From: Balanoglossus misakiensis
Lineage: Eukaryota; Animalia; Hemichordata
Reading direction: 5' to 3'
Assembly: GCA_040954595.2 (NCBI GenBank)
Contig: CM082583.2
Location: 3,233,060 to 3,297,059 of the forward strand
Length of the DNA stretch: 64,000 bases
The translations under genes were made by a program, and so were the position numbers. How positions within the stretch are numbered: the first letter of the stretch is position 1; each line of letters opens with the position of its first letter. Of this stretch, positions 12,208 through 18,569 are shown piece after piece. The notes beneath the pieces were generated by a model. That model made no database searches. It was not told where the DNA came from and was given only the letters and a program-made list of their open reading frames with translations.

Positions 12208-13348
12208 AGACCCCCCCCCCCCACATCCAGTAGTGCAAACTGTCCGAAGTTGTGTCTACACATCTACTTCCACATGACATGAACAAGCATTAAAATGTGT
12301 CATGCGATCACGAAGCACAAATTTGTTACCTCGGATTGATAGGCTTATCGTCTGTCGTCTTACTGGTGCTACATAAGGAATGATGAGGCTATCGACAAAA
12401 TACTGCTGACATAAACAACAACACATGCACGATGGACGCTTTTCAAAACGTGCACGAACATGGCGCGAAATACGCATGCCTGATTGGACAACAAAAATAA
12501 TGACGTCACGGTAGGATGACCTTTCTTCGGGTGGCATAGCTAAGGTAGCTTTCAATTCATATTGGGAGGGTCTTTATTGTTGAAAATTAAATCTGGACGG
12601 AATTAAATTCACCAATAAACAATGACAATGGTCTTTACTCATATTGCATGAGTTTTTGAACATTTTATCAAGCTATCTAGGGTAGAACAAGAAACCTGAG
12701 TTGACAGTATTTGAGATAAAAAAGGCCAAATAACAGCAGTACTTTAAGCAACACATGGGGGATTCGCATTTGTCGTGATTTTGCGAACTTAAAATGTGAC
12801 CCTCCCCAGAGTAAGTTTGCAAAGTGCTCGAGGCCCCTCCAAAATCCCCCATGCTCCGGTATCTCAGATTTGTGAAATATACCCCCCCCCCCCCCAATTT
12901 TCCTGATCCACCCTTCGTAATAGCTGAAAGCTCCCTAAGTCAGTACAGCTGAATCGAAAAAGCCGAAAGTGTGTGATTAGATTCGCCGTATTTCCTGCAT
13001 GGTTTTCGCATTATTGAGAAATTTTGGCCTTGTTTAGTTGTACATTTGTATACCATAGCGGAGACATACAAACATTTTCGATTTAACGTCTACGTTGTAG
13101 CACGATTGGATACATGAAGACAAAGGCGGGCGTGAAAACAGCACAGCGAGTCGACTGTTGCATGTTGTAGTTGTACAAATACAGTGTAAGCAAGTACGTC
13201 CACATACAGTGACATACCAAGTCAGACAACCATACTCATACCCCGCCATGACATGACCAGGATTTGAAAGAAAGGAGGACTCTGTTCGGGAATTCATCCT
13301 TCGCTTCATGATTGGTGGCTTTGAGAAAGGAAGACTCGTCGCTAAGGA

Positions 13349-14008
13349 ATGGTCATGTATATGGCATCGGGTCTGAGGGCAATGACCAACCTGTCTTTTC
13401 CTCTCCTACCGATCGAGTACGATGACACACCAGAATGGGCTTACACGATGCGACGGGAAATGCAAGAAATAGTACCTGATGTGTTTCTAGGACCGTATGC
13501 AGCAGCAATGAGAAGTAGGAAAGAGCTCTTGAAAGACTGTGGTGTTACTCATATCGTGTGCATTCGACAGAGTATAGAGGCAAATTTCATCAAGCCAAAT
13601 TTCCCTGGGGACTTTTGTTATCTGGTGTTGGATGTTGCAGACAAGCCAACAGAGAACATTATTCAACACTTTGTAGTTGCCAAAGAATTTATCGACGGGT
13701 GCCTATCGGAAGGAGGGAAAGTTCTTGTGCATGGAAATGCGGGGATTTCCCGAAGTGCTGCACTTGTGGTGGCCTATGTCATGGAAACATTTTGTCTCAC
13801 ATACAAAGAGGCTTTCAGATACGTTCAACAGAGACGGTTCTGTATCAACCCCAACGAAGGATTTGCCCATCAACTGACTGAATACGAAGCAATCTATCAG
13901 GCCAGGCTAATGACAGGGCAGTTAAAGGATGATGTTGCCCATAGCAACAACAGTGTACGTGTGAAAAGAAGACTAGATGATGAAGAGATGATGGAAGATT
14001 TTGACTAA
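13349..14008 (+). CDS. STYX: Serine/threonine/tyrosine-interacting protein (pseudophosphatase), single-exon CDS
   Basis: 219-aa ORF with EWAYTMRREMQEI..FLGPY, CIRQSIEANFIKPNF, and the diagnostic VHGNAGISRS (catalytic Cys replaced by Gly); matches STYX end to end. Confidence 0.96.
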   Translation: MVMYMASGLRAMTNLSFPLLPIEYDDTPEWAYTMRREMQEIVPDVFLGPYAAAMRSRKELLKDCGVTHIVCIRQSIEANFIKPNFPGDFCYLVLDVADKPTENIIQHFVVAKEFIDGCLSEGGKVLVHGNAGISRSAALVVAYVMETFCLTYKEAFRYVQQRRFCINPNEGFAHQLTEYEAIYQARLMTGQLKDDVAHSNNSVRVKRRLDDEEMMEDFD

Positions 14009-15776: not shown

Positions 15777-18569
15777 TCATTCCTTGAACTTCCATTCTTG
15801 TCTACACATTGGGCATTGTTGATGAACTTGCTGAGAATTCAACCATTTTAGGATACAGTGCATGTGAAACACATGTGAACACTGGCCCCATACTGTAACA
15901 ACAAAAAACAAGGTGAAAGTAAAGTCAATCAATCAATCGTTCATTGCATTCCAAGGCCACCAGCCCATATGCAAGGAGGTTACAGAAATTTAACACAGAT
16001 AAGATAGCAAAATAAATCTTTTTGGAGCAGATACAAAATATAGTCACAATACACAAAACATACATGACAATTAAATAGTTTAAATTCCGTCTCTTGAAAA
16101 AAGCGAGAGAGATATCTCTCTGATTAACAGAAAGTAAAGTGCTACCTAGCTGTGTCCTATTGGAATGTGCAAATGCTAGAGAATTCCATGTAATATGAAA
16201 ACAAAAGGGCAAAAGCAAATTTAATATTTACCTAGAGGGCAGTCATCACCAGGAATTTTACAATCAGGACAGCATCCATCAAAGGCCATTCTGCAGATGC
16301 CACAATTATCATCATTAGCAATCCATCTCCATGTTGTAACGCCTGTCCAGCTACAAGAATATGTCATGAAATAACATCATTATTCTGGACACAATTATAC
16401 CAGAATCTTGAAATAGTATTCATGCAAAACTAGTTACTGATTTCATAGTCCACCTTTAAAAATATACCACATACTGCATGTACATGATGTAAATTGTACA
16501 TAGTGATTAAAATGAGTTAATAACGTTGAAGTCCAAAAAAAATACGAAAACTATTACAATAACATTGTACTAAGATAGTTTTTGTTTTTGTTTTTTTGTT
16601 TCTATGTTTATCTTGTCTTCTCATATAAACAGAAGAATTGAATGATGATACTTACCCTGGTATAACATGGAAGTTACAAGATCATGAAAAGAAAAGAGAA
16701 AAAAAATCATTAATTATTGCAACCAAAACATCCTAGTTAGTAGTACAAGTATTCCCCCTGTCATGGGGCAGTTAAGACCCAACCATTCCTTATTCGCCCC
16801 AACTTGAATCGAAACAGGTATTTTGGATGTAATATTTATGAGTTGTTTTAATTAAAATGGACATTTTCTTGTAAATACATGACTCCTTGGTTTGAGAGAT
16901 TTCTTTTGTGACAACTTGTGAGACATGCACCTATGCGTGCAACACCAGGCCACAGTGAAAGGTTTGAAGCCATTCAGGTTTAAGTCAAGTGGGTAAGCCA
17001 CTGAGTAAAGCCCAAAATATCCACTTGTGAAGTTGTCTATGGTCATACAATTTGGCTGTGACAGTTACCAGAGAAGATTACCTATGCAGTCATAATAAAA
17101 CTGGTTATGCATAAAGTGTTTTCATATATAGCTTATTGGCTTTTTGCTGGTGGGGCAGATTTTAGCTCTTCCTCCTTGTTAGCAAGTGAGTGAGTGTGTG
17201 TGTGTTTGTTTGTAGTTATTAATAGCGAGCGCGGCATAAGTGGCCAGCGAGCACTTTTGATATACTCTAGTATGGAGGATAATGGGAAATAGAATCTATC
17301 TACGAGTTCAAAAAGTGCCGGGGTTACGTCGTGTGTTGTTCCTAAGGGACATCTTTTCGTTACGTGAAACCAATGTCATTATTCATCACAAATCCTACTC
17401 AGAAATGCACAGCGACCACATGACCATCAAAGACGGTGGAAAATTAAGTACTAGTAAATGAAATTTAGTTGCGTTTCTGAACCATTTTCGAGCAGCCTGA
17501 TGGGCCGCACCATACTGAAATCATGCAAAACCACACAAGACCTCGAAATAACCTTATGCGTGTATGGTGCCACCAACAACAACATTTGTTCTTTTTGAGC
17601 CTAAACAAGACTACCATAATGACCTTGTGAGAATGAAACCCACCACTATATAAATAATCTGAAGCTATCACATAAATGGAACGTCTTTGGCAAGGTATTG
17701 CAAAGCCTACAGTTGACCAATAGAAAGTGGAGTGTTGACAACATTGTGAATATATACAATGTACATGTACATGATAGCATGGTACAAGTTACTCTTGCTG
17801 CGCTCGCACTCAGGTCAAACCAGTTACATATTATAATAAACAGAGAAATATGTTTACAAATATGGTCATGTTTGTTTGTTACCTAATAAGGAAGAAAAAA
17901 AATGTGTTTGTTTGTTCGTTTGTTTGTTTGTTTGTTTACAAATATGGACATGTCTGTTTGTTTGTTAACAGGTTTGGGTATATTCAATGGCTAAGGTTGG
18001 GGTCACTTTGCTCCACAGCATCACTCCCTATATACATGTACAGTATACATATGTGGGGAGTGTTGCTTTGGGGCAAAGTGACTGCATCCCCAATCTCATC
18101 AAAATCTGATGTGGGGCACAGGTCGCACCGACTAAGTGCTCAGCGACTGTGATGTAGGGTGCAGTACAGTGACGCAGTGCAAGTAAAAGAGGTCGCCGTA
18201 CTGTACGTCTGATTTTAATCAGATGGATCCAACCCTAACTAACAGTTGAATACATGTATATAGCCTGGTCACCATACCCAGTGTGTTTTAGATAGACTCA
18301 CACACTAGGACTCACACTAGGTGTGAGTCTATCTAAAACACACTGGGTATGGTGACCAGGCTAATGTATACCCTAACTTTAAGCTGCAATAACTGTAGCT
18401 GTGGTGGGGTGGATGGCCATCATATCCAGCCACCCAACCACTGAACCAGCCCACCAGGGCTACAAATACAATTATTTAGATGTTTACTAGTTACAATATT
18501 TCATGCAAAGAACGGGCAGAAACTGTACTCTAATAACCGTTCAGACTCACTTTTTATCGTCACCTTCAT
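15777..18569 (-). CDS. ANAPC11: Anaphase-promoting complex subunit 11 (RING-H2), 84 aa. Exons 18569-18551, 16656 (1 nt), 16350-16232, 15892-15777
   Basis: Not in the ORF track; spliced by hand: [84 protein letters not shown]. 19+1+119+116=255 nt; all introns GT-AG. Confidence 0.96.
18261..18363. mobile_element. Near-perfect palindromic MITE (TAGCCTGG...CCAGGCTA)
   Basis: ~43-bp perfect inverted arms tagcctggtcaccatacccagtgtgttttagatagactcacac / gtgtgagtctatctaaaacacactgggtatggtgaccaggcta. Confidence 0.75.

Follow-up and report, generated by a model that had tools for sequence, protein, structure and literature searches.

Introduction

Known one-base exons lie in the plant genes APC11 and VPS55, in CYP621A of Fusarium and in the placozoan mitochondrial cox1. 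The closest to the case described here is exon A333 of Arabidopsis APC11 with its land-plant orthologues, which sits in the same gene and at the same codon, is likewise essential for the reading frame, was likewise missed by annotation, and likewise has its branch region set back, by ~40 nt or more (PMC4674806, PMC8831610). The animal exon differs from it in its base (G here, A in most plants), in intron 1, whose donor is of the major type here but, like the branch site, U12-like in plants, and in the length of that intron (1894 nt here vs. 177-669 nt in plants). These papers place the origin of the exon in early plants and, in the sections available to us, mention neither animal carriers nor U12 (PMC4674806, PMC8831610).

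The Fusarium CYP621A exon likewise reads AG-G-GT, likewise fills the middle position of a codon, with introns of phase 1 and phase 2 on its two sides, and was recognized by the same reasoning; however, it lies in an unrelated gene with very short introns, in one fungal genus, and the abstract (2026) presents it as the second example and names only Arabidopsis as an earlier one (PMC12940212). The human MPC1 gene has a 4-nt constitutive microexon, of which an engineered 1-nt version is spliced if it has a good donor and ~67 nt of intron ahead of it; two lariats are formed, and the downstream intron can leave first (PMC9929638). Unlike the natural APC11 exon, this 1-nt form is artificial, and its authors report having found none of 1 bp that is natural in the human genome (PMC9929638). 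The single-base exon of placozoan cox1 is, like the one considered here, natural and animal, but it is mitochondrial and lies among group I/II introns, and is thus not spliceosomal (PMC7813641, PMC5436844). Finally, in exons served by distant branch points, as here, an AG-free stretch separates the acceptor from a branch site and pyrimidine tract that lie some way upstream (PMC1431707).

In a literature search that reached few subscription journals, took in the top 25 of 243 hits of one query, and did not extend to large supplementary intron tables or figure-only supplements, we found no report of a one-base exon in an animal nuclear gene. Here, we analyze APC11 (ANAPC11) in the hemichordate Balanoglossus misakiensis, a gene that very probably uses a real one-base exon, G16656. 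If this is true, a nuclear gene of an animal, and one with a core role in the cell cycle, contains a naturally occurring spliceosomal exon of one base.

Results and discussion

The APC11 gene of Balanoglossus misakiensis requires one additional base

We analyzed a stretch of 64,000 nucleotides of genomic DNA (referred to here as the window; GenBank assembly GCA_040954595.2, contig CM082583.2), which carries APC11 on its minus strand in coding parts of 19 + 1 + 119 + 116 nt. Coding exon 1 (18569-18551, 19 nt) comprises the ATG, six codons in all, and the first base (A) of codon 7; 18569 is the first coding base, and the 5' untranslated part of this exon lies outside the mapped coordinates. Intron 1 (18550-16657, 1894 nt, phase 1) runs from GTGAGT to CAG with a major-spliceosome-type donor, and in-frame stops appear when it stays in the transcript. 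The candidate one-base exon, G16656, would supply the middle base of codon 7 (Ser, A|G|C). It is followed by intron 2 (16655-16351, 305 nt, phase 2, GTAAGT...TAG), by coding exon 3 (16350-16232, 119 nt after ttgtag), which extends from the last base of codon 7 to the first base of codon 47, by intron 3 (16231-15893, 339 nt, phase 1 in codon 47), and by coding exon 4 (15892-15777, 116 nt including the TGA stop).

With G16656 the coding sequence is 255 nt long and encodes 84 aa, as many as the human APC11 in the PDB has; without it, the 254 nt that remain are frameshifted and reach a stop after codon 46. The gene is an APC11 orthologue (RING-H2, ~84 aa) and not RBX1, as judged from its sequence: exon 3 matches APC11 proteins that carry Pfam PF12861 and PF12678 with identity of up to 95%, and the model of the nearest relative, Glandiceps (P0002), matches APC11 in the PDB at E 1e-49 vs. 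1e-17 for RBX1.

Splice signals at G16656 exceed chance expectation

G16656 sits between CAG (16659-16657) and GTAAGT (16655-16650), so that a canonical acceptor and a canonical donor flank one base, and the flanking exons are out of phase by exactly that amount. Ahead of the acceptor lies an AG-free zone of 74 nt (16732-16659), which contains an unbroken pyrimidine run of 21 nt (16706-16686), 30-50 nt back from the acceptor. The zone is headed by a TACTAAC (16742-16736), a candidate distant branch site that, to judge from the sequence, may be used through A16737, 81 nt upstream of the one-base exon; A16710 and A16682 are further candidate branch adenosines.

We then compared this site with its background. 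The 2200-nt interval between exons 1 and 3 holds 13 AG-N-GY sites. Both strands of the window together hold 389 AG-N-GT sites; four of these, G16656 among them, match GTAAGT at 6/6 donor positions, and no other site has a pyrimidine run as long (21 nt at G16656, 15 at the runner-up). The combination of a perfect donor with this run and with an AG-free zone of 74 nt is found at G16656 alone. An AG-free zone of at least 70 together with a pyrimidine run of at least 20 occurs at 2 of the 7086 AG dinucleotides in the window. When the interval was simulated 3000 times under a second-order Markov model, 3.6% of the simulated intervals held any YAG-N-GTRAGT and 0.2% held one with an AG-free zone of at least 50, while none (0/3000) held one with a pyrimidine run of at least 15.

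An earlier note on this DNA, made from the sequence alone, had described the 19-nt phase-1 exon 1, the phase-2 start of exon 3 and the 254-nt out-of-frame join, all of which we found again; our recomputed coding sequence likewise bears out its statement that including the G gives Ser (A|G|C) at codon 7 and an 84-aa APC11. The pyrimidine tract, acceptor, single G and consensus donor that it had read on the minus strand are confirmed, and are stronger than chance. The TACTAAC, an in-frame GT four bases into intron 1 and an in-frame ATG at 16367 are additions to its list.

Other candidates were considered and set aside. The T at 18316, a second YAG-N-GTRAGT within intron 1, was rejected, having an AG-free zone of 10 and a pyrimidine run of 4 and lying inside the loop of an inverted repeat. 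On the plus strand, 570 nt before the start of the neighboring STYX-like gene, position 12810 reads CAG-A-GTAAGT with an AG-free zone of 59 nt; it is probably the ordinary donor of an untranslated exon, and we counted it as background. Neural microexons regulated by SRRM3/4 are frame-neutral and tissue-regulated and have a UGC close to the acceptor; the present exon is of length 1 and frame-essential, with no TGC among the 50 nt that precede its acceptor. In recursive splice sites, AG|GT, an acceptor and a donor stand side by side and no base is kept in the mRNA, whereas here one base is kept and required; a zero-length arrangement passes the rule described below in 0/22 rows.

The same layout recurs in orthologous loci

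A metagenome scan with the exon-3 alignment gave 155 confirmed loci, of which 80 were taken; the other 75 are probably from more distant eukaryotes. L057, in which the match is cut by the contig end, was left out, and the classified set thus consists of 79 metagenome loci, the window and L081. The last came from a collection of prokaryote genomes that gave two loci, of which L082, an 11-residue match, was dropped; L081 is a eukaryote-like stray contig with an intron-bearing APC11, filed in a bacterial genome bin that is likely contaminated. We found no APC11 loci in the viral collection scanned.

Twenty-two loci, including the window, have a 19-nt phase-1 exon 1 together with a phase-2 acceptor. 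A further 18, mostly arthropod-like, have a single phase-1 intron at codon 7, such that arthropod-like loci lack one of the flanking introns; exon 1 is 19 nt long in these 18 as well as in the 21 other two-intron loci. Their mirror image is L055 (827-909), with only the phase-2 intron and a 20-nt exon 1; the last intron of L055 also seems shifted. No codon-7 intron is present in 20 loci (mRNA-like or intronless), 16 have the phase-2 acceptor with exon 1 off the contig, two are partly spliced forms and two are unclassified. In all loci, exon 1 encodes the conserved start M-K-V-x-I-K.

A one-base candidate lies between the flanking exons in all 21 other two-intron loci (6 animal and 15 plant); with the window included, it stands at the same codon in 7/7 animal and 15/15 plant rows. 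The animal rows are the window, coral-like L018/L020 and L019, bivalve-like L024, mollusc-like L025 and the unplaced L028. Under a strict rule (a donor matching GTRAGT at no fewer than 5/6 positions and an AG-free zone of at least 30 nt), fixed after inspection of the window and the first loci, exactly one one-base site was found in 7/7 animal rows and 10/15 plant rows. The five plant rows that fail do so on donor strength: they too have AG-A-GT following the conserved branch word, but its donor is weaker. Two of them also fail a shuffle test (p=0.18 and p=0.59). Spacer lengths other than one (0, 2-7) passed the rule in 0/49 animal and 3/105 plant tests, and the opposite strand in 0/22. With a background of one passing site per 25.6 kb of the window, the joint chance for the five distinct non-window animal loci is ~1e-7.

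The base is G (Ser) in the window, L024 and L025, and A in coral-like L018/L020 and L019 (Gln), in L028 (Lys) and in the 15 plant rows. In the six other animal loci the AG-free zone measures 65-119 nt, and in four animal loci the interval from -50 to -30 is 89% pyrimidine, vs. 54% before exon 3. Four contigs without exon 1 (L006, L067, L071 and L076) also show a one-base candidate; L022, L023 and L035, animal contigs that reach 1.4-1.6 kb upstream of exon 3, gave neither a good candidate nor exon 1.

Coral-like contigs carry the base joined to exon 3

Two coral-like contigs bear on how the base is joined. L017 lacks precisely the 533-nt intron 2 of L020 and otherwise shows 0 mismatches to it over 559 nt, with the A joined to exon 3 and with introns 1 and 3 both still present; L014 matches L019 minus introns 2 and 3, again with the A joined to exon 3 and intron 1 in place. 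Both read A-G where the genomic acceptor reads G-G, and that acceptor cannot give an A-G junction. L017 and L014 appear to derive from RNA, although L017, which still holds intron 3, might instead be a genomic copy from which intron 2 has gone. The retained intron 1 of L017 has in-frame stops, as in the window, and such forms are therefore not isoforms that encode APC11 but intermediates or targets of decay. In Orbicella, the RefSeq model P0149 has an N-terminus that corresponds to the translated tail of intron 1 followed by the A/exon 3 junction. An isoform of the moss gene in which the base stands at the end of a larger exon equals the form seen in L017 and L014 (PMC8831610).

The moss-like L049 is fully spliced and includes the A; compared with L050, L051 and L056, it has 5-6 mismatches in 169 nt. 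We found no fully spliced animal mRNA with the A at this place, and no such coral product, with Gln7, among the cnidarian and other proteins listed.

The exon stands at the same codon in plants, next to introns of a different class

All 15 plant loci with both flanking exons have the 19-nt exon 1, the phase-2 acceptor in codon 7 and AG-A-GT between them. The Arabidopsis gene itself, which lay outside this set of loci, can be compared through published primers: the APC11 forward primer, which is the same for cDNA and for genomic DNA, stops after 19 coding bases, and the one-base exon reads CAG-A-GTAGGT in context (PMC4674806 Table S1). The position of intron 3 (phase 1, codon 47) is likewise common to animal and plant loci. 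The question of whether the plant exon sits at the same codon, which the earlier note had left to a comparison of APC11 intron positions, can thus be answered with yes, as AG-N-GT stands at codon 7 in plant, coral-like, mollusc-like and hemichordate loci.

The class of intron 1 differs between the kingdoms. Plant intron 1 starts with GTATCC and matches the U12 donor pattern at 7-9 of 9 positions in 10/10 plant loci scored, with a U12-like branch word (8-9/9) at -39 to -46; this is near the branch reported by Guo and Liu 44 nt before the acceptor (PMC4674806), and U12 intron examples in Table 1 of PMC7367187 look like plant APC11 intron 1. Donor and branch words of U12 type were seen before the one-base exon in L050-L053, L056, L059, L061-L070 and L073, and we found no report of U12 signals at APC11 intron 1 in the papers searched. 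The animal intron 1 donor matches the U12 pattern at only 3-5/9 in 6/6 two-intron loci and at 2-5/9 in 18 one-intron loci. The window intron, with its GTGAGT donor (3/9 matches), is not of U12 type; it has an 8/9 branch-like word at -26, which is unspecific, as intron 2 has one too and 7% of random 70-mers reach 8. Animal loci generally show such a word (7-8/9) at -21 to -29, which may be a U12 relic, although for the same reason the test is weak.

Because this layout recurs at codon 7 in genes of coral-like and mollusc-like animals and of land plants, the one-base exon is probably older than the plant-animal split. Provided that the exon is real, it was likely inherited from the ancestor of plants and animals; the data for shared ancestry are the three common intron positions and a plausible U12-to-U2 change, and the DNA compared is animal and plant. 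The alternative is that the exon is real and the codon-7 introns were gained independently in plants and animals. This would also give introns 1 of different class, U12-like in plants and U2-like in animals, and would account for intron sequences that do not align between the kingdoms; moreover, AG or AAG/CAG, frequent at codon 7, is a favored context for intron insertion. Against this, three intron positions and their phases coincide within an 84-codon gene. Intron class conversion is reported to run from U12 to U2 only (PMC7367187), and a U12 intron in one kingdom opposite a U2 intron in the other is therefore the expected trace of descent. We consequently regard independent gain as unlikely, and it would touch only the ancestry of the exon.

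Other readings of the locus

Either G neighboring the site could supply the missing base through a non-canonical junction, so this gene by itself cannot decide between readings, and the relatives are needed. Of the canonical single-intron alternatives, the least damaging uses a weak GT four bases into intron 1 (18546-18545). Here one intron of 2196 nt would start at the shifted donor (GTGA|GT at 18546) and join exon 3 in frame, adding one residue (85 aa) and leaving AG-G-GT as an incidental or merely recursive site. Such a join is in frame, obeys GT-AG and is possible in 7/7 animal rows, and the RefSeq models of Glandiceps (P0002) and Acropora digitifera (P0155) are indeed 85 aa long, with one extra residue here and thus eight residues before Trp8. 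However, the shifted donor is weak (TGA|GTCTGA), and it is absent as an option in 15/15 plant rows; the spacing is normal in 20/20 loci without a codon-7 intron and in human APC11, bivalve and priapulid models are 84 aa long (P0136, P0144 and P0134), and the conserved one-base site, L017 and L014 would all be left unexplained. We therefore consider the shifted donor very improbable.

A single non-canonical intron could also yield the G, with a donor one base late (TG-AG) or an acceptor one base early (GT-TA). Both neighboring bases are G in the window gene, so that this intron and the one-base exon would give an identical mRNA, and even the mRNA of Balanoglossus misakiensis would be no proof. 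Introns that end in TG-AG or GT-TA are very rare. The candidate base is A in L018/L020, L019, L028 and the 15 plant rows, a base that a slipped junction cannot yield in the coral-like loci, and the A-G of L017 and L014 in place of the genomic G-G speaks against it in the same way. In Arabidopsis, altering the base altered the mRNA (PMC4674806). We accordingly give this reading very little credence.

Still less probable is that translation begins within intron 2, at the ATG at 16367, or within a longer exon whose last base is 16656, with exon 1 non-coding. This ATG is in frame with exon 3 and is a possible start for an ab initio model, as in many public models, and in the moss isoform the base closes a larger exon on its 3' side (PMC8831610 section 12). 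Yet the alternative N-termini differ in every species, vs. the conserved M-K-V-x-I-K of exon 1. The N-terminal strand of APC11 pairs with APC2. That the assembly dropped one base in the A run of five at 18551-18555, leaving a single phase-2 intron, is the least likely of all, given the same 19-nt phase-1 exon 1 and phase-2 acceptor in 21 independent contigs and trouble at the same residue in the other hemichordate's model (P0002).

Public gene models

The one-base exon would account for the wrong N-termini of many public invertebrate APC11 models. Counted by hand, seven residues, the normal number, precede Trp8 in 1 of 15 named cnidarian models, a sample that searches bias toward odd models. 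A protein-representative search for APC11 matched fungal- and protist-like proteins.

A possible mechanism and history

One base cannot be shared by U1 and the factors of the 3' splice site, which would require that the branch site and pyrimidine tract be moved 30-80 nt upstream and that the stretch in between be free of AG, as in the known distant-branch-point architecture with its AG exclusion zones (PMC1431707). We propose that the strong GTAAGT donor would let intron 2 leave first, after which the base would be the 5' end of an ordinary 120-nt exon, and that intron 1 would then be removed from the distant branch site by scanning to the first AG. The two coral-like contigs with the A joined to exon 3 and intron 1 kept suggest such downstream-first splicing. 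HeLa cells splice the engineered 1-bp MPC1 exon when 67 nt of intron precede it and a 6-nt donor follows, and when its acceptor is broken, intron 1 is kept while the downstream intron is removed (PMC9929638). A skipped base shifts the frame and a retained intron 1 adds stops, so either failure would yield no APC11.

As for history, the common ancestor of plants and animals would have had both codon-7 introns and a third one; intron 1 would have been of the minor (U12) type ancestrally, apparently still is so in plants, and would have turned major in animals, with several lineages later losing one or both introns. Taken together, we lean toward a scenario in which the exon has stood at codon 7 since that ancestor, between a U12 and a U2 intron and thus with two spliceosomes, one on each side, and in which animals converted the U12 intron and kept the exon by means of the upstream pyrimidine tract and downstream-first splicing; slow removal of intron 1 may still set the output of APC11.

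The orthologous loci and the two coral-like contigs support the central proposal of the earlier note, a one-base exon in an animal APC11. Its expectation that the two introns are removed sequentially is also supported, with the downstream one apparently first, and its suspicion that animal annotations overlook the exon fits the cnidarian count above, biased as that sample is.

If these readings hold, APC11 would offer a natural series for shortest-exon splicing: U12 + U2 in plants, U2 + U2 in the hemichordate, corals and molluscs, then the first intron only (arthropod-like), the second only (L055), and neither. The APC11 exon would be a candidate for the oldest conserved microexon, and its intron 1 a candidate clean case of intron-class conversion across kingdoms. 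In the coral-like L009 (1-660), intron 3 is gone and the tail of intron 2 is present, so intron 2 is not always first out.

Neighborhood

Intron 1 of the window gene carries a perfect inverted repeat at 18261-18363 with 43-nt arms and a 17-nt loop, like a small transposon, a second inverted pair (77%) at 17995-18089, and short direct repeats rich in AAAC/TTTG at 17851-17977. Convergent with APC11, a STYX-like phosphatase is encoded on the plus strand (13382-14008) in a single, intronless open frame of 208 codons, with identities of 82% to Ptychodera, 75% to Glandiceps and 72% to Saccoglossus; the other matches listed reach at most 72% over part of the length, in line with a hemichordate source. 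The protein collection searched has no identical sequence, and in Glandiceps the APC11 and STYX-like proteins are encoded on contigs of equal length. In L037 (517-1234), an intronless APC11 lies directly behind, and on the same strand as, a dual-specificity-phosphatase-like frame with 38% identity to the window STYX.
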